64,000 bases of DNA from Candidatus Kaiserbacteria bacterium (GTDB lineage Bacteria; Patescibacteriota; Minisyncoccia; Phycocordibacterales; Phycocordibacteraceae), in assembly GCA_963699165.1 (NCBI GenBank), contig OY969413.1, positions 596,562-660,561 of the forward strand, read 5' to 3'. This document shows, in pieces, positions 6,981-53,954 of this stretch (within the stretch, counting starts at the first letter, position 1; each line of letters begins with the position of its first letter). Position numbers and translations under genes: made by a program. The notes under the pieces are model-generated. The model saw nothing but the letters and a program-made list of their open reading frames with translations, did not search any database and was not told the origin of the DNA.

Positions 6981-7553
6981 GTGCCAGGAATACCGGTAAT
7001 CGCCATCACCGGCGGACCGTGCGGAGGAAAATCAACCTTTATGGTCCGCGCGCTCGAGTGGCTCGCAAATTTCGGCTATCATACGCTCATCGTTTCCGAG
7101 ACGGCCACGGAACTCATTTCAGCAGGGGCTTCGCCGGCCGTACTCGGTCTCGACGCCTTTCAAGAACACCTGTTGCTCTACACAATCCGGCGCGAAGAGC
7201 ATTATCTGGAAATTGCACGAGCAATCACGGGTTCAGACAGACGAGTCGTCATTCTTTGCGATCGCGGGGTTCTGGATTGCGCCGCATACATGGGACCCGA
7301 GCCGTACCGAAAAATGATAGCGCGATTGGGTTATACGCAAGAACAGCTCAGGGCTCGATATCATCTTGTCGTACACCTTGTCTCTGCCGCCATTGGTGCG
7401 GAAAAGTTCTACACGCTCGCCAACAATGCCGCGCGGAGCGAATCGCCGGAAGAAGTGGAAGGTACCCCTTTCTTCGTACACTCATTCTATAAGTATAGGA
7501 TACTATGCTCTGCTCAGAGCAACAAACTCTCTTGGCGCCATACGCAGTGCTGA
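6981..7553 (+). CDS. P-loop ATPase/kinase (AAA_28-like)
   Basis: Walker A ITGGPCGGKST; GTG start at 6981 nine nt after GGGAGG; 3' end reads into the terminal inverted repeat of the IS3 element so the native C-terminus may be lost. Confidence 0.5.
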   Translation: MPGIPVIAITGGPCGGKSTFMVRALEWLANFGYHTLIVSETATELISAGASPAVLGLDAFQEHLLLYTIRREEHYLEIARAITGSDRRVVILCDRGVLDCAAYMGPEPYRKMIARLGYTQEQLRARYHLVVHLVSAAIGAEKFYTLANNAARSESPEEVEGTPFFVHSFYKYRILCSAQSNKLSWRHTQC

Positions 7554-8285
7554 GTGAATGCGAGCGGTATTGTGATAGTGGATGGTGAGGTAGATCTCAG
7601 CCACTAATTCACCTAACGTGTCGAATCGGTTCGGATCACCCAGGTCAATCTTGAACCCTTTGTAGAAGGACTCTTGGTAGCCATTCTCCCAGGGACATCC
7701 AGGACGAGACATAGATTGCTGTATGCCGATCGTTGCCACGAGCATCGCATAATCCTTTGAGGCATACTCGCTGCCTTGATCCGAATGGATGACACGAGGT
7801 GGCGATTTGTGATGCAATGCAGAGAGAAGTGCATTCATGATGAGTTGCGTGCTGTGGGTGGTGAGGACTGACACACCGACAATCTCTCGGGAATAGACGT
7901 CAAGGATGGTAGCGACGTATACCCAGTACCCGTGGTACTTGAGGTAGGTGAAGTCACTCGCCCAGATGTCACCGTCCTGCTCGGGAGTTTGATGGAGCAA
8001 GAAGTTCGGGAATATACTGTCTTTTGTCTTTAGCACAAATCGCTTCTTTGCGGTCCTCCGATATGGTTTGATACCGAACAATTTCATCACACGCAGAATG
8101 CGCTTTTTGTTGACTTTGAGGTAGAGTGCCAACCGTTTGTGCCCATAGGCGGGATGGCTATGCAGAGCTTCTTCGATGAGTTGCTTTGTGTGCCAATCCC
8201 TCCGAGCCTGCTTCGGCTCGTAGTACAGCGTACTGCGAGCAATACCGCTCTCGCGTGCAAGAGCACTCTTGTTTTCTCTCATCAA
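7503..8285 (-). CDS. IS3-family transposase OrfB (DDE integrase core)
   Basis: HSDQGSEY ... WENGYQESF rve-domain motifs. Confidence 0.8.
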   Translation of the reverse strand: MMRENKSALARESGIARSTLYYEPKQARRDWHTKQLIEEALHSHPAYGHKRLALYLKVNKKRILRVMKLFGIKPYRRTAKKRFVLKTKDSIFPNFLLHQTPEQDGDIWASDFTYLKYHGYWVYVATILDVYSREIVGVSVLTTHSTQLIMNALLSALHHKSPPRVIHSDQGSEYASKDYAMLVATIGIQQSMSRPGCPWENGYQESFYKGFKIDLGDPNRFDTLGELVAEIYLTIHYHNTARIHSALRMAPREFVALSRA

Positions 8286-8674: not shown

Positions 8675-11179
8675 TTATAGTTTTTTGACTACCAGCATTT
8701 CAACACCACGATCATCAACAATTTTTACTGCAATCGTTCTTTTTTCACCTAATTCAAAAGGAATGGAAGTCGTTCCTGTATATTGCTCTAGTAATTCCTC
8801 GTCCACAGTACCATTTAACGCCTTTGCGAGTTTAGTCCAATCTCTTTTTTCATCTTGCATCGGAAAAAATATTTGTGATGGAAATAGAGATCTGTTGTCA
8901 TAATCGGTATCCAGCATCCATACAGCTATTTTGTCTGTACTGCCAGCCTTTAGTTCTTGTGTATGTGGATCATAATAATCAAATCCTTTAACTTCGATCT
9001 GATACTTGCCATCCTTCATTTTGTTTATTTCTATGTCAGGTTCACCGATGAGCCAAAATGGTCTGTTTGTATCTGTTTTTTTCTTTAGGTCTTTAGTAAG
9101 TAAATCAGTATTCATTTGTGCCTTAAGTATTTGAAGTCCAGGGATTTTTATATTATCAATATCTTTCGAGGCCTCTGGATCAAAAGCGTAAGAACAAAAA
9201 ATAACCATCTGTGGTTTTTCTGTCATTCCTCTAATTTCCTCCATAGTTCGTTCAATCTGAGTTTGTTCCATCGATGCATAGTCTGGACCAAATACTATTG
9301 CACACCTCTTAAACTCTCCATCTTTATCAATATTTCCGAAAGCGTGAATTTCGCTAAATCCTTCAGCAATTTCTACGCTGTTAAAAGTAATACCAACATT
9401 ATGATACGACCGAATTCCTGAAGCACGGATGTTATCTAAATAATCATTCAGTTTCTCTGAAATAATGTTCGTTGGATTTGTTTTGTCTGAAACATCCGGT
9501 AAGTTTCCATCAATAGGTTTAGTCCTAATACCAGGTACGGCTTCTACTGTGAATGGCCCAGTTACTCTAATTTTATTCTTTACAATAAAAGGTTGGTCGA
9601 AGATGGTCTCCTCCTTTGCGGGTTCATTATTTGCGATACTTCCAAGAGTAATATGTGAGACTGTTTTATATTTAAAACCAGAAGAAACGCCCTCTTCCTG
9701 TTGAGCCATTTCATAATAATCAAATCTTGCAGTCATTAATCTTTGCTTTGCTAGCTGTATAGCGACTCTAGAAGTGTCGCAAGTAATCCATCTGCGTCCC
9801 CATTGTTCTGCAACATATCCTGTAGTTCCTGAACCACAAGTAATATCTAAAACCAAGTCACCTGGATCTGTAGTCATTAATAAACACCTTTGGATAACAA
9901 GCTGATTTGTTTGTACTACATAAATCTTATTCATACCACTCCCAGAAACTGTGTCTTCCCAAATATTAACAAGTGGGCAAACTGGGAAATCGTCAATATA
10001 TCTTTTATACGAAATAGATTTCCCAGAAGACACAACTCTCTTTGCTTTAACGAGTTGTTCAAATCCTTCAATATCAGTTTTCCAGTGATTACCTGCAGAG
10101 GGCTTATATATATTCCCTTCAAATTCAAATTCTTGCGACTTAGCTGAAGCACCTTGAGACTCTAATGTTGATAAACGAAATAAACGACCTTCTTTAATCA
10201 CAGACCAATCAGAAGATTCTTCTTTTGTTAAATTTCTTATCGTTCCATCTTTTAATTCAATCTTGTTATAAGCCTGGTAGCCATCACTAGCAATTTTATT
10301 ATCATATAGTTGATGATATTTAATTACATCCTTATTCTTTCCATACCAAATTAAATAATCGGAAACGTTATCTAATGTTGTAGAAGCGAAACCACTCGTT
10401 TTTTTGAAGGATATTTGTGAAATAAAATTACTTACACCAAATATTTCATCCATTATTTCTCGTACATGGTGCACATTTTCATCTGATATCTGTACAAAAA
10501 CGCTTCCACTTTCGTGTAGAAGTTCTCTTGCCAAAAAAAGTCTGTCGCGAAGATGCGTAAGGTAACTATGAATACCCAATTCCCAGGTGTCCCTAAAGGC
10601 TTTTATCATTTCTGGCTCTGCAGGAATACTATCGTCATCCTTATCCTTAACTTCTTTTTTATTTGTAAATGGCTGAAAATTGGAATTATATTTAATTCCA
10701 TACGGCGGATCTATGTAAATCATCTGAACCTTCCCGGCCATTTTTTCCTTTTCTAGGAGCGAATTCATCACGAGCAAACTATCACCTGCGATAAGACGGT
10801 TAGACCATGGTTTAGTATGGCCATAAAAATCAAATTCTCGATCAAGATTTAGATTTTCACTAGGTTCCTCAAAAAGTGACGGCTGTATTTTAACTGGCTC
10901 TTTCGTTTTTTTAAGAACTTGTTTGATAATTCTTTTTGGATCAATTCTTTCGTGTATGTGTAGAGACACTGTGTCCACATCAAAAGACATCCCCTCTACT
11001 TTGCCAGTCCAAGATAGCGTCGGATCAATATAAGGATCGTGCTGATAGATCTTCTTTTTTGGCTTAGTATCCAATGAGCTACTGACAAGGCCTACCTGAG
11101 GATTATTACTTCTCTTTTCCTTGTGCTGATATTGCCCGATAGAAATATCTTTTGTTTTTGTGGCTTGTTTTTTGGGCAT
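8675..11179 (-). CDS. DNA amino-methyltransferase, beta-class (Mod-like), with about 300-aa uncharacterised C-terminal extension
   Basis: motif IV IYIDPPYG precedes motif I VLDITCGSGTTG (beta-class order) with a TRD-sized segment between; strongly AT-rich codon usage relative to flanking genes. Confidence 0.75.
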   Translation of the reverse strand: MPKKQATKTKDISIGQYQHKEKRSNNPQVGLVSSSLDTKPKKKIYQHDPYIDPTLSWTGKVEGMSFDVDTVSLHIHERIDPKRIIKQVLKKTKEPVKIQPSLFEEPSENLNLDREFDFYGHTKPWSNRLIAGDSLLVMNSLLEKEKMAGKVQMIYIDPPYGIKYNSNFQPFTNKKEVKDKDDDSIPAEPEMIKAFRDTWELGIHSYLTHLRDRLFLARELLHESGSVFVQISDENVHHVREIMDEIFGVSNFISQISFKKTSGFASTTLDNVSDYLIWYGKNKDVIKYHQLYDNKIASDGYQAYNKIELKDGTIRNLTKEESSDWSVIKEGRLFRLSTLESQGASAKSQEFEFEGNIYKPSAGNHWKTDIEGFEQLVKAKRVVSSGKSISYKRYIDDFPVCPLVNIWEDTVSGSGMNKIYVVQTNQLVIQRCLLMTTDPGDLVLDITCGSGTTGYVAEQWGRRWITCDTSRVAIQLAKQRLMTARFDYYEMAQQEEGVSSGFKYKTVSHITLGSIANNEPAKEETIFDQPFIVKNKIRVTGPFTVEAVPGIRTKPIDGNLPDVSDKTNPTNIISEKLNDYLDNIRASGIRSYHNVGITFNSVEIAEGFSEIHAFGNIDKDGEFKRCAIVFGPDYASMEQTQIERTMEEIRGMTEKPQMVIFCSYAFDPEASKDIDNIKIPGLQILKAQMNTDLLTKDLKKKTDTNRPFWLIGEPDIEINKMKDGKYQIEVKGFDYYDPHTQELKAGSTDKIAVWMLDTDYDNRSLFPSQIFFPMQDEKRDWTKLAKALNGTVDEELLEQYTGTTSIPFELGEKRTIAVKIVDDRGVEMLVVKKL

Positions 11180-11367: not shown

Positions 11368-12681
11368 ATGAACAAACCGGTATTCGAGGACACAGACAAG
11401 GTTCTTGGGCTGAAACCCGAGAATAAGGAAGCAGTTAAGGTGCGGTACTGCCTCTACGCCAGAAAGAGCACCGAGCAGGACGAAATGCAGGCTCTCTCTA
11501 TCGACTCGCAGATCAAGGAGATGTCGGCCCTCGCGGCTCGTGAGGGCCTCGAGATTGTAGTGATTAAGCGAGAGAGCCATTCAGCCAAGGAGGCCAGCCA
11601 GCGGCCAGTCTTCAACGAGATGATTGACGAAATGCGTGCCGGAAAGTTCAACGGGATTCTGACGTGGGCAGCGGATCGTATCAGTCGTAACGCAGGCGAT
11701 CTCGGAAGAGTAGTTGACCTTATGGACGCCGGAGTGCTCGTGCAGATACAGACGTATACGCAGAAGTTCTCCAACAATCCGAATGAGAAATTCCTGCTGA
11801 TGATCCTTTGTTCACAGGCAAAGCTTGAGAACGACAACAAGAGCATCAACGTGAAGCGCGGACTGCGAACGCGCGCCGAGATGGGAATGCTCCCCGGCTG
11901 GGCACCGATTGGCTACTTGAACGACAATCGGTCGGACCATAAGTGCGAATATCTACTCGACCCTATACGCTCCCCTATCGTAAAGATGATCTTCGAAAAA
12001 GTAGGGCGAGATAAGTGGAGCGGGGTGAAAATATATCACTGGCTCAAAGATGAAATAAAGTTCACAACAAGAAGCGGAAAGAGTATGAGTATCGGCACTC
12101 TCTACGAAATCCTAAAGAATCCATTTTACTGCGGCGTCTTTGAGTACCCGCGAGGGAGTGGCAACTGGTATGTCGGCAAGCACGAAGCACTTATCACGCG
12201 AGAGTTATTCGAAGAGGTCAGAAAAAAGATTGTTGAAGAAACGAATCCAAGAAAGAAACATACTGGGTTCGCATTCGTGAAGATGATGACTTGCGGCGAA
12301 TGCGGCTCCGGCCTTACTTGTCTCGAAAAAGAAAAGATACTACAGACCACTAAAGAATCTGTATTCTACCGCTACTACGTCTGCAGCCGAGCACGTGATC
12401 GGCGATGCAAGAATCCGTATATACGCGAGGATGCGCTCGTCGAGCAACTCTGCGGAATCATCGATGAAATCGAAATAGACCGACTCGGCGCTCGGGCTCT
12501 CATAGACAAGGAGGTGGCTCGGTTCAACAACATGCAGTCAAAGGTACTTGGCATACAGGGAAAGGAGAAAGCGCGGGATGTGGATATCAAACGTTATGCG
12601 AAATACCTGCTTGAAGAAGGAACGGTCGACGAGAAGCGACAACTGCTGCATAAGTTCAGATACATTTGGCAGTCCTCATAA
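11368..12681 (+). CDS. large serine recombinase; last 11 codons supplied by IS481 copy 1
   Basis: catalytic YARKSTEQ serine motif, resolvase N-domain, recombinase domain and Cys-rich zinc ribbon (CGECGSG...C). ORF runs 36 nt into the IS that begins at 12646, so the native C-terminus is probably truncated. Confidence 0.75.
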   Translation: MNKPVFEDTDKVLGLKPENKEAVKVRYCLYARKSTEQDEMQALSIDSQIKEMSALAAREGLEIVVIKRESHSAKEASQRPVFNEMIDEMRAGKFNGILTWAADRISRNAGDLGRVVDLMDAGVLVQIQTYTQKFSNNPNEKFLLMILCSQAKLENDNKSINVKRGLRTRAEMGMLPGWAPIGYLNDNRSDHKCEYLLDPIRSPIVKMIFEKVGRDKWSGVKIYHWLKDEIKFTTRSGKSMSIGTLYEILKNPFYCGVFEYPRGSGNWYVGKHEALITRELFEEVRKKIVEETNPRKKHTGFAFVKMMTCGECGSGLTCLEKEKILQTTKESVFYRYYVCSRARDRRCKNPYIREDALVEQLCGIIDEIEIDRLGARALIDKEVARFNNMQSKVLGIQGKEKARDVDIKRYAKYLLEEGTVDEKRQLLHKFRYIWQSS

Positions 12682-13727
12682 CCGAGGATATATGCGCATC
12701 AGAAGCAATTTCAGGGGTACGAAGGGCTGGTTGAGCATGTGGGAAAGGACGATACGATTGCGGCATATGCGGAAACCAAAGGAAGTCGACAGACGGGTGA
12801 AGATATTGGGATTCTGGGACATGCACGGGACGGAGGCCACATACGACGCCTTTGGCACCTCGGAGCGCACCTTGTATCGCTGGAAGGAGGAACTCAAAGC
12901 CCACGAGGGCCGCATTGATGCACTTGACCCGAAGAGCACTGCGCCGAAGGCGCGTCGAAGGAGGACTGTTCTGCCCGAGGTCGAGGATTTCATCATCCGC
13001 GAACGACAGGCGCATCCCCGGCTTGGGAAAGCAAAGCTTGCCGTTCTCCTGCGCGAAGAAGGGTACTCCGTGTCGGAGTCATACGTTGGGCGGGTCATTC
13101 TGGATTTGAAGAACCGCGGTCTGCTCCCGCAGCAGAGCCGGCTCTCGTTCCACGCACGTACGGGCAATCACACGGAAACACCGCAGAAACGCCGTACCAA
13201 GCTTCGCCGCACCGGCAAGCGCGGCATGGAGCTCGATACCGTCGTACGCTTCATCGACGGCGTGAAGCGGTACGTCCTCACGGCAGTGGACGTGGAGCGG
13301 AAGTTCGCCTTTGCGGGCGCGTATACGAACCACTCGTCGAGAAGCGCGGACGACTTCCTTCGCCGAGTCATCGAGGTTTGCCCCTTCGATATCGACGAGT
13401 TGCAGACCGACAACGGGAGCGAGTTCGCCAAACACTTCGAGGATGCCTGTGCCGAACTCGGGCTCACGCACTTTCACACCCGCCCCCGCACTCCCAAGAT
13501 GAATGCCCACGTCGAACGATTCAATCGCACCGTGTCCGAGGACTTCATCATGCTGAATCGGGGCCTGCTGCGGGACGATATTCATTCCTTCAATCTGAAG
13601 CTTGTCGACTGGCTGATCTGGTACAACACCAAACGCCCGCACCAGTCGCTCGGCATGGTGTCCCCCTTGCGGTATATTGTGTGTACATTAACCGTCGGGG
13701 ACTGCCAAAAGTACTGGACGCGTACAA
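12646..13727 (+). mobile_element. IS481-family-like insertion sequence, copy 1 (1082 bp)
   Basis: 99 percent identical to 60721..61802; single DDE transposase ORF; imperfect terminal inverted repeats containing TTGGCAGTCC. Confidence 0.75.
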
Positions 13728-13808: not shown

Positions 13809-16181
13809 TCAAGATACTCTTCTGCCCTGAACACTATTCAAATAGAGAAATCTTGAATTAACCGCCATCTCAGACATTCGCAATGCATATTGATAAGGAA
13901 GCTCCTTAAATCTGGGATTCTCCCAATAGGGCTGATAGGGTTCGAGTTCGGCATTTGCAAGCAGGATAAACGGAATATTCTCTGTTTCCAGAGTTCGGAA
14001 AAGGCCGAGTTCGGCTTCTGTAAATGTATCGGCGGTTTTAGCAAATATCAGATAGCAAGAGAAGCCCTTTGCGACCAATTTATCCCTAGCGACTTTCAAA
14101 TTATCGATATCATTCTGATCAATTTCTCCTCCCTCGTCCTTTGCTTCTCCAATTCCGATCTCAAACTCGTCACCCCTACTGTGCTGAAAGACAACGAAAT
14201 CCGTCTCGAATGCTCGATTGCCGACTTTCAGATTGAGAGCCATTGAGTACAGGAATTCACCGTGATTAAAGACTCTACTGAAAGCAAGAAGAGAAAGGAT
14301 AACGGGAATAGCACCTTCTTGATTATTGTTTTTCGCAAATAGACCAGCTTTTTGAAAGTTCCATATGCCTGGGCTATCTCTAAAAGATTGAACGATGAGT
14401 GGTCGAAGATTCTGCTCTTCAAAACAGAATGGACACGGCCATTTATCATTCTCGAAGTCAGAAAGCAGGACATTGGAAGCGAGGCCACATCCTTCGCACC
14501 GATATTCCTTTCGTTTCCGAAGAATCTTCTCGAGCCAACGTACTTTAGGTCGTAAGATATTTTTCTTAATGAGAAAATTGAAAGCATCACGCGGATTGAG
14601 ATTTTTAGACTCTCTCGACTCAAGAAATAAAGTTTGGAATCTCTTAAACCTCTCTTCGTCCCAAATGATTCTAAGTGCGTCATTCCACTTGATGAAAGTA
14701 TCGGCGGGCAAATCCTTTAGAAACTTTCTAACTCCTGTGATCTTGAAAACACGGCACGCCTCCAGCGGCGTGTATTCCCTCATACCCGTAACTATTTTCG
14801 AAGCAAGTCTCCCAGGTTGGCCAGTCTGTGCCTTGATTTCAGAATACTCCAGAATCTTCTCGATCAATTTCTGATGTGGAAGCGGGTATAGTGTCTCACT
14901 CTCATCGTGCACGTTAATCAAGAGCGCGAACCCTTCTCGCTCGACTCTTAACTTCCACGGATCAAAAACAATTTCTCTGCTGTAGAACTCGTTGAGGCCA
15001 GGTAGGCAAGGAATCTTCAGTGTGTGATCTGAGTAGCCAAAATCTCCGTAAGCATCGATGTTAACGGCTAGGATTTGCTGATCAACATGTCGTCGGTCAG
15101 TCGCCCCGTCGAGAAACTTCTTTTCAGGAAGTGACAAACTGACCTGATACCGATCAAACTGTTTCTCAACAGTGCCGTAACCTCGTTGCCATTCAAAGCA
15201 ATGATAGGCAGGATTCAACCCCCACGCGATGGCTGGAATGTCGGGAGAGAATGTACCAAGGGCTTTTGCTTTCTTCGTAGGGAAAGTCTCCAGGATTTTT
15301 TGAATCTCGTCGTTAGGCAGACTGTGATGAACCCCTATCCAGTCTTGAATTTCTGGATGTGAGTTTGGTATGCCGTCTAAGAACTTGAAGTATTTGGTAA
15401 TGAACGGTCTGAATCTCTCGATCTCGTCGATCGGGCAGAACATGAATGTCTTACCAGAAGCTCGCAAATTCCAAAAGTGCACTAAGTCATCGAAACTATC
15501 CTTCTTCCCGAAGAAGACTCCATACCCACCCCGCTGCCCACCGCCATACCCTTTAAGATCCATACTGGTCAATCCAATCGGGGGAACAGACAGTGCAAAG
15601 GAATCTTTTATCTTTTCGCCGTTCTTTATCTCTATGATCTTCGACCTCAAACCGCGCACGAATGCGTCTTCGAAATCGTCTTTGAGGTTGTAGGACTTTG
15701 GGAAGAAACCAAAATTCAGAGCAAAAACCGCATTTAGTGGATCGGCTTCGTCCCATTTAACTAGGACGCAATTACTTCTGTAGTTTTTCCGCTTGTGCTT
15801 GAAATCTTCCTGCCATAACTTCTCGATAATGTTGAGCACGTCGAGATAGGCAATTTCATTTTTCTTGGTGTGCCATTCTTGATGGAAAATCTGATCCGCG
15901 TAGTGACCTCTATCTCGAAGAAACGGGAACTTGTCTATGAACTCTTTAATCTCCTCAGACTCAGCGATTTTGTAAAAAGTATCGGGCAGGAAAACTCCTA
16001 CAAGATAATCAGCAAGAGAATTATCCTCACCCTTTGGAGCAACTGGAATGATTGGATTATGAATACCGCCCCAAAGCAATGAGTTTATTCCAGTGGCAGT
16101 CACAAGATCCTCAATGTGTCCTTTCCTGACGAGAAAGGCGACCTTGGCGGGCCGGTATTTAATAGAGAAATTTATGGACAT
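13809..16181 (-). CDS. large (790 aa) uncharacterised protein with CxxC...CxxC Zn-ribbon and C-terminal PD-(D/E)xK-like motif
   Basis: start moved to internal Met (ATG 16179-16181); AT/Lys-rich composition; CEGCG...CPFC; GDEFEIGIGEAKD resembles the D...ExK nuclease signature. Confidence 0.55.
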   Translation of the reverse strand: MSINFSIKYRPAKVAFLVRKGHIEDLVTATGINSLLWGGIHNPIIPVAPKGEDNSLADYLVGVFLPDTFYKIAESEEIKEFIDKFPFLRDRGHYADQIFHQEWHTKKNEIAYLDVLNIIEKLWQEDFKHKRKNYRSNCVLVKWDEADPLNAVFALNFGFFPKSYNLKDDFEDAFVRGLRSKIIEIKNGEKIKDSFALSVPPIGLTSMDLKGYGGGQRGGYGVFFGKKDSFDDLVHFWNLRASGKTFMFCPIDEIERFRPFITKYFKFLDGIPNSHPEIQDWIGVHHSLPNDEIQKILETFPTKKAKALGTFSPDIPAIAWGLNPAYHCFEWQRGYGTVEKQFDRYQVSLSLPEKKFLDGATDRRHVDQQILAVNIDAYGDFGYSDHTLKIPCLPGLNEFYSREIVFDPWKLRVEREGFALLINVHDESETLYPLPHQKLIEKILEYSEIKAQTGQPGRLASKIVTGMREYTPLEACRVFKITGVRKFLKDLPADTFIKWNDALRIIWDEERFKRFQTLFLESRESKNLNPRDAFNFLIKKNILRPKVRWLEKILRKRKEYRCEGCGLASNVLLSDFENDKWPCPFCFEEQNLRPLIVQSFRDSPGIWNFQKAGLFAKNNNQEGAIPVILSLLAFSRVFNHGEFLYSMALNLKVGNRAFETDFVVFQHSRGDEFEIGIGEAKDEGGEIDQNDIDNLKVARDKLVAKGFSCYLIFAKTADTFTEAELGLFRTLETENIPFILLANAELEPYQPYWENPRFKELPYQYALRMSEMAVNSRFLYLNSVQGRRVS

Positions 16182-16260
16182 AGATGCATTATCGCAGATA
16201 TAAGATTTCTGCAAAGCTGACCGACAGATTGTTGATACTTCTTGAAATGCTACATAACAG

Positions 16261-16292
16261 AAAAAGCGCCCTATGTATTTTAGGCGCTTTTT
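16261..16292. terminator. bidirectional rho-independent terminator (aaaaagcgcc-ctatgtatttta-ggcgcttttt)
   Basis: GC stem flanked by A5 and T5. Confidence 0.6.
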
Positions 16293-16365
16293 CTGGTGAA
16301 CACCCGGGTCGGTACTGTACTGACCTTGATGGGGGCCGGTACTGGTTCCTGGCGTCACAACCGTG

Positions 16366-16395
16366 TTGCGGGGGCCGGAATCGAACCGGCGTCTG
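16366..16395 (-). ncRNA. tRNA-like 3' fragment (T-arm GCCGG-UUCGAUU-CCGGC plus acceptor 3' strand); no complete tRNA found
   Basis: consensus T-loop on the minus strand; the matching 5' acceptor strand (GCGGGG) lies about 300 nt away at 16663-16668; no tmRNA tag ORF found. Confidence 0.45.
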
Positions 16396-16833
16396 GAGGT
16401 TATGCTTACCACTACAACTTTAATTGCCCAATTTGGTTTGTGGTCTGGACTATGCCTTCATCCGCATGCGTGGATGCCTACCGTCTAGTCTCTACACCTT
16501 CCCGCACGAAAGTTTTTTGAACTTTTTGTGCGGACTTGGCTCGGCGTTGCCGTGCGTCCGAAGACGCTAGGGTTTCACCGAATTTGGCAGGTAATCATAC
16601 GCGCAATTGCTCGCGCGCACGCCCGAATAATTCAAGCCTCCCGAGGTACCTCTCCTCTACCCCGCTAAATAAAAGTATACACTCAATAACCTTGTTGGCA
16701 ATCGCATGCGAAAAGCAAAAAATAATTCAAGATGCGCGGCGCGGGAAGCTGATTTTCTGAATCGTACTTTTCGGTACGTTGAAGAAAATCAGCGGGATCC
16801 GTAACAAAGCAGGTTGGATTTTTTTCTTCTCGC

Positions 16834-17405: not shown

Positions 17406-18833
17406 CTACACGGACTTTTCAACTGCACGGGCGCCCGCAAACAAAACATCTTCGCCTCCGTGGGGCGCGGTCAAATGAATGCCGATCGGCAATTGCTTCC
17501 CTTCCCGTTCAACGCGGCCCATCGGCACGGAGACGGCTGGCACGCCGGTCAGATTTGCGGTAACGGTGAAGATGTCTTCGAGATACATCGAAACTGGGTC
17601 GCTTTTCTCGCCGAACTTGAACGCGGGCGAAAGCGTTGTCGGAAATGCGATGATGTCCGCTTTTTTGAAAGCATCAGCGTATTCGCGGCGAAGCACGACG
17701 CGCGCCGCTTCCGCTTTGCGGTAATACGCGTCGATGTAGCCGGAGGAAAGCACAAACGTGCCGAGCAGGATGCGGCGAAGCGTTTCCTCCCCGAATCCTT
17801 CGGTGCGCGAAAGAACATAATCATCAAGCAATGTCTTCCCGCGTTTCGCAAGACCGTAGCGCATGCCGTCGAGACGCGCAAGGTTTGTAGAGACCTCGGC
17901 GGGCATAATGACGTAATAAGCCGCAAGCGCATACGAACTGGTTGGCAATTCAATGTCGACAATGGTGTGCCCGTCTTTTTTGAGTTTTTCGAGCGTTGCA
18001 TTAAACGCCGCGAGCACATCCGGATTTACTTCTTTACCGAGAAAATGCCGCGGAATGCCGATGCGCAATTTCGCCGGTGCCTTTTGTGCCGGATACAATC
18101 CTTCCGGAATCGTCGTCGAATCCATCGCGTCCAGGCCGCGAATCGCATCAAAAAGGATTCGCGCATCCTCGACCGTTTTTGCGAGCGGACCGATTTGGTC
18201 GAGCGACGAACCCATTGCGATGAGACCGTGGCGGGAAACGGAACCGTAGGTCGGCTTCATGCCGACGAGGCCGGTGAGAGCCGCGGGCTGGCGGATGGAG
18301 CCGCCGGTATCGGAGCCGAGCGCGGCAATGACAAAATGTGCGGCGACGGCGCACGCGGAACCGCCCGAGGAGCCGCCGGGCACGCGGCTCGTGTCGTGCG
18401 GGTTCCGCGTCTTCCCAAATGCGGAATGTTCCGTCGAGGAACCCATCGCGAACTCGTCCATGTTGGAGCGGCCGAGGAAAAGCGCGTCCGCGGCTTTCAA
18501 TTTCTGCACGACCGTTGCATCGTACGTGGCGCGATAATTCTCGAGCATTTTTGAGCCCGCGCTTACCAACTTTCCGTCTATCAAAATGTTGTCCTTGAGC
18601 GCAAGCGGAATCCCGCACAAAAGCGGCGCCTTTTCGCCTTCCGTGTCGATGCGTTTTTGCGCCTCCGCGATAGCCGCGGCGTCGCGCGGAAAAATTTCCA
18701 GAAATGCGTGCAGCTCCGGATTGCGCTTTTGCGCTTCTTCGTAGCACGCATCAAAGAGTTGTGCGACGGTAAGTTCCCGCGCGCGGAGAGCGCGGGCTGC
18801 CTGCACGATGGTCATTTCATTCGGCCGATTCAT
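17406..18833 (-). CDS. gatA: Glu-tRNA(Gln) amidotransferase subunit A
   Basis: amidase signature GGSSGGSA and full-length similarity pattern. Confidence 0.9.
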   Translation of the reverse strand: MNRPNEMTIVQAARALRARELTVAQLFDACYEEAQKRNPELHAFLEIFPRDAAAIAEAQKRIDTEGEKAPLLCGIPLALKDNILIDGKLVSAGSKMLENYRATYDATVVQKLKAADALFLGRSNMDEFAMGSSTEHSAFGKTRNPHDTSRVPGGSSGGSACAVAAHFVIAALGSDTGGSIRQPAALTGLVGMKPTYGSVSRHGLIAMGSSLDQIGPLAKTVEDARILFDAIRGLDAMDSTTIPEGLYPAQKAPAKLRIGIPRHFLGKEVNPDVLAAFNATLEKLKKDGHTIVDIELPTSSYALAAYYVIMPAEVSTNLARLDGMRYGLAKRGKTLLDDYVLSRTEGFGEETLRRILLGTFVLSSGYIDAYYRKAEAARVVLRREYADAFKKADIIAFPTTLSPAFKFGEKSDPVSMYLEDIFTVTANLTGVPAVSVPMGRVEREGKQLPIGIHLTAPHGGEDVLFAGARAVEKSV

Positions 18834-35452: not shown

Positions 35453-36077
35453 ATGTGGTCATTGCAAAATTGTATTGATTTCCTCTTTCCGCCGCGGGAC
35501 GGCGAGTTGGCGCTGCGGGAATTCCCCACCGACGGGTTCTCCGCCCTCGTTTCTCCGTACATCGTACCGTTCACGAGTCCGGAAACGACCGCTCTGCTCG
35601 AAATCGCGCATCCGGTCGTGCGCGGCGCGCTCCATGAAGCGAAGTATCACGGAAACGAGAAAGGATTCAGCGTATTGAGTACCGCGCTCGCGGAGTATTT
35701 GCTTGACTTGGATACGATTGAAAAAATCTCGCGGGTTTCTCTCGTTCCCATCCCGCTTGGAAACAAGCGCCGAAAAAAAACGCGGATTTAATCAGACGGA
35801 GGAAATTGCGAATCGCGCGGCAAAACTTGCCGGATGCACCGTTGACCGGGCCCTTTTGATTCGAGCGCGCGAAACCGCTTCGCAGGTGTCGCTTCCAAGG
35901 CGCGAACGCGAAAAGAACATGCGCGGCGCCTTCGGCGCCGCGCACCCCGCCGACCCCTCCCGCACCTACATTCTCATCGACGATGTCGTCACCACCGGCG
36001 CAACGCTCCAGGCGGCCATCGATGCCCTCAAAGCCGCCGGAGCACGCCATATCATCCCGCTCGCCCTCGCGCATTAA
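35453..36077 (+). pseudogene. comF: ComF-family phosphoribosyltransferase, split in two frames at an A8 run
   Basis: PRTase motif ILIDDVVTTGATL in ORF 35703..36077; upstream half in ORF 35453..35791; removing one A from the A8 tract at about 35772-35779 joins LGNKRRKK to RGFNQTEEIA. Confidence 0.65.
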
Positions 36078-36240
36078 ATTTGATATTGTAGCCGTTAACG
36101 GAGACGTGGCTATGAAATATGAACTGCTTCATATTTCATCTGGTTCTGCCTTATGGCAGAACCGACCGTTGCCCCGGAAAGGGGGCAGGTCGGAGGGAAG
36201 CCAGGCGAAGCCACGTCTCCGATGGAACGAAGTGGAATAC

Positions 36241-36327
36241 GGAGACGTGGCTGAGTGGTCGAAAGCACCTCGCTGCTAATGAGGCAGGGGAGAAATCCTC
36301 TCGTGGGTTCAAATCCCACCGTCTCCG
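36241..36327 (+). tRNA. tRNA-Ser (anticodon GCU), class II long variable arm
   Basis: acceptor GGAGACG/CGTCTCC, 3-bp D stem, anticodon loop CUGCUAA, T-loop GGGTTCAAATCCCAC; CCA not encoded. Confidence 0.85.
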
Positions 36328-36328
36328 C

Positions 36329-36371
36329 AAAAATAACGAGCAAGACGCGAAGCGTCTTGCTCGTTATTTTT
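36329..36371 (+). terminator. rho-independent terminator
   Basis: aaaaataacgagcaagacgc-gaa-gcgtcttgctcgttatttttg perfect 20-bp stem. Confidence 0.8.
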
Positions 36372-36689
36372 GCGGTGAGATATTAGACTTTGCTCGAACC
36401 CACTTCGCACGCGCGGAGCGCGTGGTGGCTTGAAACTGCCTCGTACGCTCCGATTGCATGGGGAAACGAACCGATGCGCCTCGGACACGCTCGCGGACTC
36501 GCGTGTGCAAAAATCAAAAAATTTCCTTGCATTTTTCTCGCGCCTCCTCCCCCCACCCCTCCACCGCGAAGCGGAAAAAGAAATGGAAAGGAAATTTTTG
36601 GTTTTGCTTCGCCGTTATCATAAATCCAGTTTATCACAATAATCTAAAATGGTATATTCCACTTTCGACTATATTATGTTAATATCTAT

Positions 36690-36908
36690 ATGTCGAAGAA
36701 ATACCAAGCAAAATATCAAAAACTTACCGCAAAACTCCGTTCCGCTCGCCAAGAGGCAGGTTTAACGCAAGTAGAAGCAGGAAAACTATTGAAGAAACCT
36801 CAAGCGTATATTTCCAAGATAGAGCGAGGCGAGCGCGGAGTTGATGCGATAGAATTAGCAGAGTTTGCGAAGGTCTACAAAAAAGACATTAACCATTTTA
36901 TAAAATAA
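36690..36908 (+). CDS. XRE-family HTH transcriptional regulator
   Basis: LTQVEAGKLLKKPQAYISKIERGER Cro/C1-type HTH; AT-rich. Confidence 0.7.
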   Translation: MSKKYQAKYQKLTAKLRSARQEAGLTQVEAGKLLKKPQAYISKIERGERGVDAIELAEFAKVYKKDINHFIK

Positions 36909-36912
36909 CAAT

Positions 36913-37752
36913 ATGGAAAACGAACCAAAAATGAATAAATTTAAAAACTACAAAAGTTTAGTTTTGATATTAGTAATTATCGCCGTGATAGTTGGTTTGT
37001 ATTTGCACTACGCACAGCGAAACACGCCAACTAAAGCAACAAGCACTCAAACGACTTCAAGCGCGGAGCATACGGCTAGTTATATTTCTAGTGTAATAAG
37101 CGCGATTGCAAGTTATCGACAATCTACCCAAGAAGCAACTCTTGTGGCGAAAGAATATACTGACAAAGGCGTGGACATAAATAATCGGAGCGTTAAAACC
37201 GCCGAAGAACTTGCTGTGTTGATGAAAGTTGTAAATGATTTCAAAAATGGAAACTCGTATTTGGCACCATATCTTAATGATAGTAATTCTCTAATTAGTG
37301 TTTCTGCAAAGGCATTAGATCAGTCCGCAACTTCTATTCTCCAACCCAACGAGGATATGCTCGCCGCTTTCCAAACCGGAGACACGCAGAAAGAACAAAT
37401 CGCACTTGCATCCGTGACTGCCGCTCAAGACTCGGGGACAAACGACATGAACAATGTTATGCAGATAATTAGGGAGGGATTGATAATGGGACTTGGAGAA
37501 AACGATAATTTGCCGACAAGTGGAACTATACACACATCTCTTTCAGTGGAACAAAGAAATAATTTGTTGGCACAAATAAAAAGTGATTTCCCAAATGGAG
37601 TAAATAATTATTCTAACGATATTTATTCTTTGATGATCTATGGAATTCAGGCGGTCTTAGTGTCAGATACCTTTGAGCAATTTCGCAGTTTAGCAGGCAC
37701 AATGACCACAAACGGCGCGCAAGCGTTGCCGTTTGTGGTTTCAGAAAAATAA
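36913..37752 (+). CDS. hypothetical membrane-anchored protein
   Basis: one N-terminal TM helix; AT-rich; no known motif. Confidence 0.4.
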   Translation: MENEPKMNKFKNYKSLVLILVIIAVIVGLYLHYAQRNTPTKATSTQTTSSAEHTASYISSVISAIASYRQSTQEATLVAKEYTDKGVDINNRSVKTAEELAVLMKVVNDFKNGNSYLAPYLNDSNSLISVSAKALDQSATSILQPNEDMLAAFQTGDTQKEQIALASVTAAQDSGTNDMNNVMQIIREGLIMGLGENDNLPTSGTIHTSLSVEQRNNLLAQIKSDFPNGVNNYSNDIYSLMIYGIQAVLVSDTFEQFRSLAGTMTTNGAQALPFVVSEK

Positions 37753-38256
37753 ATGAGCTTATCAGATTTTATTTTACTAGCTACTGGAGTATTTATTGCT
37801 TGGCAAGCGTGGGAAACACGCCAGTTAGCGAAGCTAACAAGAATTAAAGACCAACCGCTTTTGGAAGTTGAATTTCAAAATAATGGGGCAAAAGTCCAAT
37901 TAAAAAATATCGGACAATCTCCCGCATATTCGCCATCAATTAGTTCGATTGAAATTGCAAGCAACGAGCATTTAGATTTTGACCCTTTGCACACTTCTCG
38001 CTTACCAATACAGCTCGGCGAAAGCCGAGAAGTGTGGATGCATCATCAGCGTGTGGATGAGAATTCGATTGGTGGTTTTGTTGAAAGTGCGCCAGTTTTG
38101 AAGAATTTTCTGCTAAACAAAACTACTCCCACAAAAATTACTCTAAAGTATTTTGATAAAGACGGCGTTAAACTTTGTCGCGATTTATATATAAAAGTTA
38201 GTGGTAATAAAATAAGTGGAAACCAGCAAATATATACAACCACGACTTGTGAGTAG
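37753..38256 (+). CDS. hypothetical membrane-anchored protein
   Basis: abuts previous ORF (TAA ATG); AT-rich. Confidence 0.4.
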   Translation: MSLSDFILLATGVFIAWQAWETRQLAKLTRIKDQPLLEVEFQNNGAKVQLKNIGQSPAYSPSISSIEIASNEHLDFDPLHTSRLPIQLGESREVWMHHQRVDENSIGGFVESAPVLKNFLLNKTTPTKITLKYFDKDGVKLCRDLYIKVSGNKISGNQQIYTTTTCE

Positions 38257-38263
38257 TGGGAGC

Positions 38264-38306
38264 AATCCCCACCGTTTTATAATTTCTCCTAAAAACGGCG
38301 GGGATT
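38264..38306. terminator. bidirectional terminator hairpin
   Basis: aatccccaccgtttt ... aaaacggcggggatt. Confidence 0.6.
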
Positions 38307-38800
38307 TGTGCGCGCACAGGGCGGGCGGGGTGAGAAGCGAATACATGGAGCTTCGCAAGACTCATTGAGGATTTTTACGAGCAAAGCGAAGTAAAAAGCC
38401 CAATGAGTGGACAGTTCCTGTAAGGAAAGCACATACAGATTTGTTTGTGCCTAGCACAATCCGCTTTATGAGTTACTACGACCCGTAAACGAAGCCACGA
38501 ACGATACCGATGTACGGCTAAGCAAGAGCCAAACAGGCCTGTATCTCGTTGTTGAGTGGCTGGCGATACATATGTCTGGAATGGAGGCGCGCATGCATAA
38601 AAAATTCGATGGAGCTCGAGCTTACCTGACTCAATTCATATCGCTGCCACTGCCTTCCGGAGCGAGTGATTCAGAAGAGCGTACTTTTATGAACAGCATT
38701 GAGCAAATTAAAAAATTCTTGCAAGGGGAGAATCTTGAAGAAGGTTCAGAGAATGCAATCCCTCCCTTTGAATAGCATTGCGAAATTCGCCCCAACCAAC

Positions 38801-38822
38801 AAACCCGCCTCTCGGCGGGTTT
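38801..38822. terminator. terminator hairpin (aaacccgcc-tctc-ggcgggttt)
   Basis: downstream of DUF378 gene on minus strand. Confidence 0.55.
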
Positions 38823-38844
38823 GTCCGATCGCACTTACCATGCG

Positions 38845-39087
38845 TTATGCCGCAGGCGTTGCCGGCACCGGCGCACACGACCGACAATCCCCTTTATGCG
38901 TAAAGAGGATAAGGATTGCCGAGAGGCCGACGAGCACATAGACGCTGTTCTCAAGAACGGGCCATGTACCGAGCAGAATACTCACCACGTTCCAGTTATT
39001 GCCGAGAAAATTTCCGAGACCGACCAAGCCCCAATTGAGGCCGCCGACGACGAGCAGAAGAAACGCAACCGCGTGAAGTACTTTCAT
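38845..39087 (-). CDS. DUF378-family small membrane protein
   Basis: GGLNWGLVGL motif, two TM helices. Confidence 0.55.
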   Translation of the reverse strand: MKVLHAVAFLLLVVGGLNWGLVGLGNFLGNNWNVVSILLGTWPVLENSVYVLVGLSAILILFTHKGDCRSCAPVPATPAA

Positions 39088-51482: not shown

Positions 51483-52355
51483 CTATTCCGCGAGCGAATA
51501 TCGACCGCGCGCCTTGCGCACAAGGCCTTCACTGAGCAGCGCATCGAGCGCGGCGACGGCCTGTGGCTGCCTCGAAATACCAAGCGCGTTTATGAGACGG
51601 GCGCGCGTAGCGTCTCCTTTTGCGAGCTCGCGCAAAATTGCGCCGCGCGCTTCCCGATTCGAGCCGGCAAATTTCGATTGCCGGGCGTACGTGTCGCTCT
51701 TTGCGTTATGCGAAATGCCGGAACGCTTCAAGTGCGCGCCATAGTCCATAAGCGCCCCGTACCACTCTCGCGCGCGGCCTTTCGGCAACACGTTCCGAAG
51801 AATCTCTTCAATCTGCGAATCCGAAACACTACCATATATGGTAGTGTTTTCGGCAAAGAAATGGTGGATGATTGCCGTGCGAATGTTGGTCTCGACGAAA
51901 ATCACATCTTCGTTGTATGCAAACGCGGCGATTGCGCGCGCAGTGTACGGACCGACGCCGGGCAGAGATTCCCACTCGGCAATCGTTCTGATTTTTCTTG
52001 CGACAATTTCATGCGCGGCCTCGCGGAGCATTTTCGCGCGGCGATTGTAGCCGAGGCCCTGCCAACTTTTTAAAACTTCGGACAGCGGCGCATCGGCGAG
52101 CTTTTGCGCCGTGCCGAATTTTTTTATGAACACATTGTAAAAAGGAATGACGCGGTCAACCTGCGTCTGTTGCAACATCACCTCCGAAACGAGAATCCGG
52201 TACGAATTTTTTGTCTTGCGCCACGGCAAGGTGTGCCGCCCATGCGCATGGTAATATTTCCACACTATTGATCTGAATTTGGCAGGAGACATTACGCCGT
52301 ATCCTAGCCCAAATCGCGCAAAGAAAAAATGTTGACTAACCCCGACTGCCTTCAA
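51483..52355 (-). CDS. HhH-GPD base-excision glycosylase (MutY/EndoIII-like) lacking Fe-S cysteines, with C-terminal winged-helix domain
   Basis: LPWR, VSEVMLQQTQV, LPGVGPYTA HhH-GPD motifs; no Cys cluster; C-terminal 60 aa wHTH-like. Confidence 0.7.
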   Translation of the reverse strand: MKAVGVSQHFFFARFGLGYGVMSPAKFRSIVWKYYHAHGRHTLPWRKTKNSYRILVSEVMLQQTQVDRVIPFYNVFIKKFGTAQKLADAPLSEVLKSWQGLGYNRRAKMLREAAHEIVARKIRTIAEWESLPGVGPYTARAIAAFAYNEDVIFVETNIRTAIIHHFFAENTTIYGSVSDSQIEEILRNVLPKGRAREWYGALMDYGAHLKRSGISHNAKSDTYARQSKFAGSNREARGAILRELAKGDATRARLINALGISRQPQAVAALDALLSEGLVRKARGRYSLAE

Positions 52356-52379
52356 TCTTCGGAAAACTAACGTAAGGAG

Positions 52380-52940
52380 TTAATGTCCTTGATACGTGCT
52401 AATCAATTTCTCATCGGCTAAAACAAAATAGATATCAACATCATACGCGGTGGATTCTAACCATCGCTTAATTGCCGTCAATGCTACTTCCGCAGATTCC
52501 CTATGTGGCCAATTGTAAGCGCCAGTCCCGAGCGCGGGGAATGCAATACTTTTTGCCTTAAGCTCTCGCGCAAGTTCCAGAGAATTTACATAACAGGCCG
52601 CCAAAAGTTCTTCTCTCGGAACGGGATATGGTTTAAGAGTATAGAATCTGGGTGCGGTGGTATGGATGATATATCGTGCTTTTAGATTAAAACCGGAGGT
52701 ATGCACAGCTTCTCCCGTCGGACATTTACCGATTGCACGCTTGGCTAGCTCAATAGGAGTTCCAATTGTTTTACAAATTAGCCTATCAACGCCACCACCC
52801 GTTATCAACTCTTCATTTACAGGATTTACTATAATATCCGTTTCCATTTCCAGAATGCTCCCACAGACGGCTTTAATCATTTTGAGAAACGGGGGACAGC
52901 CACCATTATTTTCTTGATATAAAATCCCATTTATTTTCAT
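52380..52940 (-). CDS. macro-domain protein (ADP-ribose binding/hydrolase)
   Basis: DIIVNPVN ... GGGVD ... AFPALGTG; AT-rich. Confidence 0.75.
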   Translation of the reverse strand: MKINGILYQENNGGCPPFLKMIKAVCGSILEMETDIIVNPVNEELITGGGVDRLICKTIGTPIELAKRAIGKCPTGEAVHTSGFNLKARYIIHTTAPRFYTLKPYPVPREELLAACYVNSLELARELKAKSIAFPALGTGAYNWPHRESAEVALTAIKRWLESTAYDVDIYFVLADEKLISTYQGH

Positions 52941-53439
52941 AGTCCTCTACCGTGGGAGTTTGTACAAAGTACTGTTCACCCCTGAGACCCATTCTAAAAA
53001 TGCGTTGGTCGGTATTGTATTTTACTTTCTTCTTTTCTTTTTTCTTCTCATCAATCCAAAATTGATGCTCCTCTCGAATGTACTTTGCAACAATTTCACT
53101 AGGAACAACATAGAACTTGAAAAAACCAGTATCTTTAGAAATATTTACAAAGCAATAAAAGAGCGATTCGCTATAAATAGTTTCGTGCTTCTTACTCATC
53201 ATCCAGTCGCTTACAAACTTTCCGTGAATCTTAGAGACGGATGGCTCTTTCTTATCATTTTTGAAATTTGTCTTGACTTCGAGTTGCCATAGTTTGCCGT
53301 TATCCGGATCTAAAACAAGAATATCAACGCTTTTGGTATTGCCGAGCGTCAGGTTTGCATCGTACCCCCGCAGAGCTAATTGGGAAAGGACAGCAAACTC
53401 TCCCGCAATCGAAACTGAATTTGTATTAATGGATTTCAT
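52906..53439 (-). CDS. PD-(D/E)xK nuclease-fold protein, hypothetical
   Basis: GEFAV...VDILVLD...LWQLEVKT (E, D, ExK spacing); 35-nt overlap with macro gene; Lys-rich. Confidence 0.5.
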   Translation of the reverse strand: MKSINTNSVSIAGEFAVLSQLALRGYDANLTLGNTKSVDILVLDPDNGKLWQLEVKTNFKNDKKEPSVSKIHGKFVSDWMMSKKHETIYSESLFYCFVNISKDTGFFKFYVVPSEIVAKYIREEHQFWIDEKKKEKKKVKYNTDQRIFRMGLRGEQYFVQTPTVEDYENKWDFISRK

Positions 53440-53462
53440 TTTGCTGACCGTCCGAGACGATG

Positions 53463-53954
53463 TTAATCACAATCAACAATCCCAATAAATTTGAAACCTC
53501 TGAGAAGTTTATCCGCACGTTCCTTTTCTTCAAGATCTCGTTTAATTTGTGCTGGCGATTTTTTCCTATTTCCGACCTCGGCCACTGAGTCGGGTGATGC
53601 TGTCCCCCAAAAGATTTTGTCTAACCTTTCTCCACTCTTTAAATCTAGAATTTCCCACACGATTTCATTTTCCCAACCTTCTTCAGATTCCACTCGATAT
53701 TTGTACCGCCGAGCAATGAGACAATCCTTGGTTCGTGTGTCGAACTTTAATCCGAAGCCCTCAATCTCAACATCAGTAAAATCCTCGGATAGAGATTCTT
53801 CTTTTTTCTTACGCCAAATTTCAAAGTCGCTACGTGCAGTGATTCTATAGAGTAATTCTATTTGAGTATTATTGAAAAGCGACCATTCTTTCCAAAAGAA
53901 CAAAATCAATACAGTCAGTAATAACACCAGGAGAATTATAATAAGTATTTCCAT
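53463..53954 (-). CDS. membrane-anchored hypothetical protein
   Basis: N-terminal TM helix; AT-rich; first gene of the three-gene cassette. Confidence 0.4.
   Translation of the reverse strand: MEILIIILLVLLLTVLILFFWKEWSLFNNTQIELLYRITARSDFEIWRKKKEESLSEDFTDVEIEGFGLKFDTRTKDCLIARRYKYRVESEEGWENEIVWEILDLKSGERLDKIFWGTASPDSVAEVGNRKKSPAQIKRDLEEKERADKLLRGFKFIGIVDCD

Follow-up and report, generated by a model that had tools for sequence, protein, structure and literature searches.

An unnamed and widespread family of about 770 amino acids with a predicted PD-(D/E)xK nuclease domain is a candidate single-gene defence nuclease

What is the role of a large protein of no named family, whose gene lies in a pocket of foreign composition between a tRNA gene and an insertion sequence (IS)? 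The question is raised by the gene at 13809..16181 on the minus strand of a 64,000-nucleotide stretch of contig OY969413.1 from a Candidatus Kaiserbacteria bacterium (positions 596,562 to 660,561, assembly GCA_963699165.1), which is referred to here as the window. A first-pass annotation of this DNA had described the product as an orphan with a zinc ribbon and a nuclease-like tail, an architecture typical of single-gene defence effectors. Here we show that the protein is a member of a large unnamed family of ~770 amino acids (aa) with a fixed architecture. The family is patchily distributed, horizontally transferred and carried on integrative and transposable elements, and its modelled nuclease domain is structurally closest to the nuclease domains of Card1, Can2 and Cdn1. 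We regard it as a reasonable candidate for a new single-gene defence nuclease.

The 790-aa open reading frame (ORF) of the first-pass annotation was found to be intact and is read on the minus strand from an ATG at 16181. This start agrees with the homologue alignment, in which the N-terminal consensus is M-x-x-x-x-S-I-K-Y-R-P, and the product is 100% identical to an NCBI protein (P0001) from a metagenome-assembled genome of Minisyncoccia (Patescibacteria). A longer reading from a GTG at 16412 (867 aa) was rejected as an artefact because it runs through the 3′ exon of the upstream tRNA; it is also unlike the N-termini of the homologues. The gene and the domains of its product are as follows.

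13809..16181, minus strand: coding sequence of the focal gene, ATG at 16181, stop codon at 13809-13811, 790 aa, uninterrupted
15237..16181, minus strand: D1 (residues 1-135) and D2 (residues 136-315), predicted Rossmann-like alpha/beta lobes (AlphaFold2 predicted local distance difference test, pLDDT, >90)
14877..15236, minus strand: D3 (residues 316-435), predicted beta-rich domain with a near-invariant LNEFYSRE motif (AlphaFold2 and conservation)
14532..14876, minus strand: D4 (residues 436-550), predicted helical, winged-helix-like domain (AlphaFold2 and conservation)
14406..14513, minus strand: Cys4 zinc ribbon (residues 557-592) with C562, C565, C583 and C586 (conservation and sub-threshold Zn_ribbon Pfam matches)
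13812..14405, minus strand: predicted PD-(D/E)xK (restriction-endonuclease-fold) domain (residues 593-790; Foldseek and conservation)

The protein is no orphan. At the 90% clustering level, the first homologue search listed at least 300 full-length relatives of 750-800 aa at 38-75% identity, and those carrying names are mostly ‘hypothetical’, with a few called ‘RNA polymerase subunit RPC12/RpoP’. A profile search of 1.84 billion cluster representatives (50% identity) recovered 2,702 clusters at E<=1e-3, of which 1,638 passed <=1e-10 and 663 passed <=1e-30; nearly all of the matches listed align end to end. Family lengths are tight at 740-790 aa, and ORFs below this range are either cut off by a contig end or frameshifted (the latter at loci L076, L083 and L084). 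The first-pass statement that no recognisable family appears over about 650 residues was nevertheless correct with respect to curated resources, as no Pfam, NCBIfam or PADLOC family covers the protein. These three returned nothing but sub-threshold zinc-ribbon matches at residues 559-592 of the window protein, PADLOC-DB v2.0.0 gave no match to it at E<=0.1, and sequence searches of the PDB were empty.

A scan of GTDB with one genome per species (185,579 genomes) found 127 loci, of which 79 were kept; the scan used peptide patterns and its counts are a lower bound. More than 15 phyla and archaea are represented, including Patescibacteria, DPANN archaea, Planctomycetota, Bacteroidota/Ignavibacteria, Acidobacteriota, Verrucomicrobiota, Chlamydiota, Nitrospirota, Gemmatimonadota and alpha-, beta-, gamma- and zeta-Proteobacteria. 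Among the carriers are cultured strains, for example Bradyrhizobium elkanii WSM2783, Roseateles saccharophilus DSM 654 and Rhodanobacter spathiphylli B39. Members from Patescibacteria, Planctomycetota, Ignavibacteria and archaea share 45-47% identity with one another. The family is found on only 2 of 72,556 plasmids, and tblastn of the family against 50,697 phage records returned no match. A phage origin was accordingly rejected, given the empty phage search, the want of a consistent PHROG and matches that were no better than weak in BFVD (predicted viral protein structures), where they fell on small PD-(D/E)xK proteins.

The full-length AlphaFold2 model, built from a 40-sequence alignment, has a pLDDT of 90.3 and a predicted template modelling (TM) score of 0.88, and a separate model of residues 1-435 (pLDDT 90.8) agrees with it. 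Conservation was read from 62 diverse members (identity 19-75%), to which all counts out of 62 refer. In the model, the C-terminal domain consists of a helix (621-637), three strands (643-653, 656-667 and 673-681), a second helix (689-704) and a further strand (708-715). This alpha-beta-beta-beta-alpha-beta order is that of the canonical restriction-endonuclease core, the fold of the superfamily. The catalytic motif of the superfamily is also present, with E659-x-D661 on strand beta2 and E679-x-K681 on strand beta3, and its residues are conserved almost throughout (D661 in 62/62 members, E659 in 61/62, E679 in 59/62 and K681 in 58/62). Helix alpha1 carries Q621-E622-G623, and E724, E745 and E747 are likewise conserved. 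Across the whole protein, D67, G158, L233, F236, W237, N238, R240, A241 and P391 are invariant, as are the four ribbon cysteines, G623 and D661. Conservation of at least 90% was seen for G38, G39, N42, G225, D232, R412, R477, K480 and R485 and, in the C-terminal domain, for E659, E679, K681, E724 and E745.

Foldseek searches of the PDB with the full model placed Cdn1 (9u49; 149 columns, rmsd 3.7 Å, probability 1.0), Card1 (6xl1, E 9.6e-4) and Can2 among the matches, together with McrC, EcoT38I, TnsA, BsmI, Nt.BspD6I, the nuclease domain of Avs4 and a Hachiman structure. The matches to Card1, Cdn1, Can2 and restriction enzymes are confined to the C-terminal domain. The corresponding Pfam model, Card1_endonuc (PF09002), matches weakly in 2/62 members, with a best E of 0.15 that lies below threshold. 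We are highly confident in the architecture and the nuclease fold as modelled. The nuclease-like C-terminus of the first-pass annotation is thus upheld by a predicted structure with a restriction-endonuclease fold, not the non-nuclease fold that would have spoken against it, as is its Cys4 ribbon by four cysteines present in every member (62/62), although the two together span the last ~235 residues rather than the 150 that it had allotted them. Its D-x8-EAK motif survives in part: E679-A-K681 stands, whereas the aspartate, D671 in RGDEF, is kept in only 23/62 members. The D/E/K triad proposed for mutation therefore used the wrong aspartate, the invariant one being D661, accompanied by E659.

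The N-terminal 435 residues have no such relative. Among the Foldseek matches listed for residues 1-435 against the PDB, the best E was 4.6e-3, probabilities were <=0.18 and TM-scores were <0.25; the proteins were bilobed and of alpha/beta structure but otherwise mixed (adenylate-forming enzymes, LuxP, glutamate racemase, MurC, the isomerase domain of GlmS and carbamoyltransferases). No CARF, SAVED, SRA or helicase protein was among the 50 matches listed. Adenylate-forming (ANL) enzymes (adenylation domains of non-ribosomal peptide synthetases, FadD32, DltA) head that list, a resemblance that we attribute to generic alpha/beta structure. The ANL reading was rejected because the matches are poor (TM-scores 0.13-0.17, rmsd 18-20 Å, probability <=0.16) and none of the ANL signature motifs is present on reading the homologue alignment. 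Profile similarity of residues 475-584 to TFIIE-alpha, which combines a winged helix with a zinc ribbon, was non-significant (E 0.17) and is used as a description of shape only. The helical domain D4 carries conserved basic residues (R477, K480 and R485, within the motif RVFKIxGVRKL) and, as modelled, probably binds nucleic acid. In the N-terminal module, an invariant polar cluster (N42, D67, D232, W237-N238-x-R240 and R412) suggests, by inference from the model, a ligand-binding or catalytic pocket.

In the window, the gene belongs to a decayed low-GC island beside a tRNA gene. On the minus strand the order is a split tRNA-Met, a terminator, a promoter-like site, the focal gene, an IS481-like element, a recombinase gene (opposite strand), a Mod methyltransferase gene and an IS3-like transposase gene. 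The individual features are listed below.

16365..16666, minus strand: tRNA-Met(CAU) with a group I intron (16405-16634, 230 nucleotides) in the anticodon loop
16258..16295, minus strand: tRNA terminator, a 14-bp hairpin flanked by an A-run and a U-run (dG -21.9 kcal/mol, z -5.06)
16188..16215, minus strand: promoter-like TTTGCA-16-(TG)GATAAT, a consensus match only, ending 6 nucleotides before the ATG
12661..13713, plus strand: IS481-like insertion sequence with an rve/rve_3 transposase and 15-nucleotide inverted repeats
11368..12681, plus strand: large serine recombinase, its 3′ end clipped by the IS481-like element
8675..11179, minus strand: type III-like N6-adenine Mod methyltransferase, 834 aa (PADLOC MTase_III, 2.7e-161)
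7503..8285, minus strand: IS3-like transposase, directly following Mod

The low-GC island starts at the 3′ side of tRNA-Met. The GC content of the gene is 44.1%, against 51.9% for the window and 55-58% for the flanking gatA, gatC and ligA genes, and the Mod/IS3-like stretch is lower still than the focal gene (35-42%). The foreign composition first remarked upon is thus confirmed, as is the setting of the gene, with an IS on one side and a terminator on the other: the IS481-like element ends in a right inverted repeat (13699-13713) 95 bp from the focal stop codon, and the hairpin at 16258-16295 terminates the upstream tRNA and sets it apart from the focal gene. Given a promoter-like site only 6 nucleotides from the ATG, the mRNA may be leaderless; such sites are, however, no more numerous in this region than in shuffled sequence. 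The left inverted repeat (12661-12675) supplies the last codons of the serine recombinase ORF, and therefore the IS has replaced the C-terminal end of the recombinase. Excision of the island may thus no longer be possible. Searches for att-like repeats bounding it, including a direct repeat of the tRNA 3′ end, found none. Mod has no Res partner gene in the window, and roughly its last 330 residues have no Pfam family match.

The split tRNA recalls the introns of cyanobacterial tRNA-fMet genes. The Rfam Intron_gpI model scores 48.6 bits here (gathering score 50; E 4.6e-10). ARAGORN misses the tRNA in the raw sequence, while the joined exons give a clean 72-nucleotide tRNA-Met(CAU) whose A1xA72 mismatch is initiator-like. 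The ‘tRNA-SeC’ that ARAGORN reports at 18221-18313 on the plus strand falls within the ORF of the gatA amidase (17406..18833, minus strand) and is probably a false positive. Two other stretches of the window are of low GC relative to ~54%, namely ~36000-39000 (40-47%), which begins at tRNA-Ser(GCT) (36241-36328), and ~52000-54000 (38-46%); these are probably additional genomic islands.

Turning to the family as a whole, ORFs were called in the 79 loci and the window, and the 1,158 neighbouring ORFs were clustered all-against-all; Pfam annotation covered the commonest families in the two genes closest to the focal gene on either side, together with the loci annotated in full. The clustering revealed no universally conserved partner gene, and the Pfam-annotated neighbours include no cas gene, Cas10 or CD-NTase. 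Homologues are not confined to housekeeping contexts, occurring instead in variable, mobile regions rich in restriction-modification (R-M) genes. The commonest neighbours are large serine recombinases (within 10 kb at 11/79 loci), a cluster of ~317-aa proteins that recurs at 8 loci, and DNA methyltransferases. Where the flank extended to 5 kb or more (64 loci), a DNA methyltransferase was found within 5 kb at 13, a serine recombinase at 9 and a superfamily 2 (SF2) helicase at 7. The recurrent Pfam families of the nearest genes are N6_N4_Mtase, Phage_integrase, ResIII, Eco57I/N6_Mtase/MmeI and SWI2_SNF2, along with Schlafen-AlbA_2/HATPase_c_4, RVT_1, nucleotidyltransferase pairs, KAP NTPase and EcoRI with its methylase.

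Several arrangements place the gene directly beside R-M genes. In one locus Mod, a Res helicase and the focal gene follow one another on the same strand, tightly packed (L018), and in another the order is focal gene, Mod and Res, packed in the same way (L029). A helix-turn-helix (HTH) methyltransferase and an uncharacterised 374-aa protein precede the gene at three loci (L013, L014 and L017), an EcoRI R-M system lies directly upstream at a fourth (L015), and at a further locus the gene follows a type I-like R, an M-S fusion and GmrSD_N (L090). Two divergent Patescibacteria-type contigs share a cassette in which the focal gene follows genes for a PLD-SNF2 helicase (~1,070 aa) and an Eco57I/MmeI-like methyltransferase (~1,090 aa) (L005, 1442-10295; L089, 467-9340), each with a serine recombinase gene directly upstream. 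Between these two cassettes the helicase and the methyltransferase are 28-29% identical and the focal protein 44%, and the three genes may form a distinct R-M-like system.

Other arrangements are those of mobile elements. At L091 (1-9361) the gene comes immediately after TniQ/TnsD- and TnsE-like genes and a gene for a 1,359-aa protein with no Pfam match, an order which places it in the cargo region of a Tn7-like transposon. At several loci a tRNA gene and then a recombinase lie just upstream, and settings resembling integrative and conjugative elements (ICEs) contain a TraG/TrwB coupling protein, DUF932, RadC, a primase and a Cas4-like PDDEXK_1 protein. Further defence-related genes were seen near two copies: a Thoeris ThsB-TIR with an AAA_13 ATPase (L093) and, near the Bradyrhizobium plasmid copy, Abi, PrlF/YhaV and an ATPase with an S8 peptidase. 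A 758-aa hypothetical protein adjoining the latter copy was considered as a paralogue and proved unrelated (hhalign probability 0.1).

The Cas4-like protein (~254 aa) was observed near family members in 4/8 metagenome loci (L088, 5895-6659; L093, 432-1196; L090, 9539-10300; L092, 1-394), and an ORF of 57-61 aa directly adjoins its gene in three of the four. Between L088 and L093 the Cas4-like proteins are 96% identical and the focal proteins only 65%, a contrast in sequence which suggests a shared mobile-element backbone with exchanged cargo.

Judged from these contexts, a role of the family in defence or conflict is rather probable, and we lean slightly towards the focal protein being a stand-alone endonuclease that serves such a role. 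Overall, a stand-alone nuclease carried by mobile elements as cargo for defence is the most likely description. The frameshift-disrupted copies and the foreign GC of the window gene speak for this reading. Since the gene follows a helicase-methyltransferase pair at ~12% of loci, its action as a single gene is likely and not certain.

A number of observations weigh against the defence reading. Scattered single weak matches to PADLOC v2 among the 62 members correspond to no consistent model, and PHROGs gave no consistent match in the same sample. At approximately two thirds of the 64 loci, neither an R-M gene nor a recombinase gene could be recognised within 5 kb, some neighbours are ordinary housekeeping genes, a minority of loci have metabolic neighbours only, and the enrichment of R-M and mobility contexts is expressed as raw counts. 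The protein may not always act alone, the loci at which it follows a helicase-methyltransferase pair numbering about 9. Conservation is very high over the full length, which is unusual for sequence-specific restriction enzymes. Moreover, structural comparison is uninformative for the N-terminal 435 residues and therefore ‘sensor’ is a guess; the module could equally well be an enzyme.

The closeness of R-M genes raises the alternative that the protein is an endonuclease subunit of the R-M type, working with a neighbouring methyltransferase whose methylation of the host would shield self DNA. In the window its partner would be the related Mod, which lies 2.6 kb from the focal gene and is now split off by the recombinase and the IS, and elsewhere it would be the helicase-methyltransferase pair. 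The packed same-strand orders with Mod and Res, the type I-like series ending in the focal gene and the preservation of the PLD-SNF2 cassette despite the low identity of its partners all argue in this direction. However, any detected methyltransferase lies within 5 kb at only the 13 of 64 loci given above, which sets the family apart from Type II and Type III R-M endonucleases, and the methyltransferases belong to at least 6 unrelated families (N6_N4 type III, Eco57I/MmeI-like, DUF1156, DUF6094, EcoRI and HTH-methyltransferase). Across these the nuclease stays 40-50% identical, a misfit with matched sequence specificity, and the adjacent systems have nucleases of their own (PLD, Res, EcoRI or HsdR-like). 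Therefore, a matched-specificity R-M function is unlikely. The likeness to Type III Res in particular extends to a type III Mod as neighbour (in the window and at L018, L028, L029 and L036) and to a PD-(D/E)xK motif, but the focal protein has neither SF2 helicase motifs nor a ResIII Pfam match, and three of these loci (L018, L028 and L029) already encode a separate ResIII helicase protein. We consider an R-M subunit improbable as an account of the family.

A function for the mobile element itself is likewise unlikely. Under this proposal integrative or conjugative elements would use the protein as a nuclease for DNA processing, exclusion or anti-defence, to degrade, for example, competing elements or the nucleic acids of host defences. 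The nearby serine recombinases (11/79 loci within 10 kb), the ICE-like regions and the carriage as Tn7-like cargo are what such a role would lead one to expect. Nevertheless, there is no fixed partnership with any family of recombinase, relaxase or transposase, many copies are far from recognisable mobility genes, and the family is absent from the phage records and next to absent from the plasmids searched.

It is very unlikely that the protein is a housekeeping nuclease of DNA repair or recombination that occurs in a variable region here by chance. High conservation over the full length and the purely metabolic surroundings at some loci are compatible with that role; on the other hand, the scan found the family in only 127 of 185,579 species-representative genomes (a lower bound, as noted), its distribution does not track taxonomy, and foreign GC, disrupted copies and islands beside tRNA genes do not fit such a role. 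The least probable account, and one that we all but discount, is a signal-activated nuclease of the Card1/Can2 type with an N-terminus that binds a cyclic oligonucleotide from a type III CRISPR or a CBASS system located elsewhere in the genome, since the best PDB matches (Card1, Cdn1 and Can2), the weak PF09002 match in 2/62 members and the Rossmann-like N-terminus are set against an N-terminal model with no CARF or SAVED protein among its 50 listed Foldseek matches, the lack of a CARF or SAVED Pfam match in the 62 members and Pfam-annotated neighbours that include no Cas10 or CD-NTase.

Card1, Can2 and Cdn1 are CARF-domain nucleases that serve type III CRISPR as ancillary effectors, and they are among the known systems closest to the focal protein. 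The C-terminal PD-(D/E)xK domain is of the same type and constitutes the closest structural match of the focal protein, and the logic of an N-terminal Rossmann-like module followed by a nuclease is the same. The differences are that the N-terminus is not detectably CARF in the Foldseek and Pfam comparisons just given, that the protein is about twice as long and contains, in addition, a beta domain, a helical part and a Cys4 zinc ribbon, that its annotated neighbours show no CRISPR association and that the Card1_endonuc threshold is not reached.

Two further groups of single-protein nucleases offer what we take to be the closest working analogy, a Type IV-like or Shedu-like enzyme that would travel beside R-M systems. 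Shedu (SduA, DUF4263) is a single polypeptide of defence islands in which variable or regulatory N-terminal domains precede a C-terminal PD-(D/E)xK domain. The focal family similarly joins a C-terminal nuclease of this kind to one polypeptide, but its N-terminal architecture is fixed, not variable, it has a zinc ribbon, and neither the window protein nor the 62 members matched DUF4263 in Pfam or gave a consistent match to a PADLOC model, that for Shedu included. Like the modification-dependent Type IV enzymes found beside R-M or BREX loci (Mrr, MspJI, GmrSD/BrxU), the focal gene comes without a methyltransferase of its own and repeatedly adjoins complete R-M systems. Mrr has a winged-helix-like DNA-binding part and a catalytic domain of the restriction-endonuclease fold, and the focal protein, as modelled, likewise combines a winged-helix-like part with such a domain; however, no match in sequence or structure was found to Mrr_cat, SRA, DUF262 or DUF1524. 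A solo nuclease beside R-M systems is, by analogy, a genomic pattern compatible with Type IV restriction. This pattern is nearer to such enzymes, to accessory nucleases that accompany R-M or BREX loci or to autoinhibited nucleases of the Shedu kind than to R-M function of matched specificity.

A specific sensor-gated model, the most likely mechanism on the reading that we favour, can be sketched from the predicted architecture, and we advance it tentatively. The bilobed and beta-rich N-terminal module would recognise a trigger and gate the nuclease, the trigger being either some property of foreign DNA (a base modification, for example) or a small ligand held between the lobes. The winged-helix-like helical domain and the zinc ribbon would hold nucleic acid, through them the N-terminal module would switch on the nuclease, and the Card1-like domain would then cut the DNA of the invader in a Mg2+-dependent manner. 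Where the gene stands behind a helicase-methyltransferase pair, its product might act as a third partner in a new R-M-like system. We entertain with some doubt the broader idea that these proteins make up a widespread immune system of one protein, so far unrecognised, in which the N-terminal module would detect a cue derived from phage and would represent a new type of sensor, or possibly an enzyme.

The kind of protein encountered here, a single nuclease gene in a defence island, is familiar; what is new is the unnamed family and its N-terminal 435 residues without a recognisable relative. The family comprises ~2,700 clusters, keeps to one architecture and is missing from Pfam, NCBIfam, PADLOC and PHROGs, which is a clear gap in annotation. 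D661, E679 and K681, together with D67, D232, W237, N238, R240 and R412 in the N-terminal module, are direct targets for mutagenesis. If the family is indeed a defence nuclease, it would couple a new N-terminal sensing or catalytic fold to a Card1-like nuclease, and it would constitute a new single-gene system present in Patescibacteria and DPANN archaea, whose defence genes are, to our knowledge, largely uncharted.

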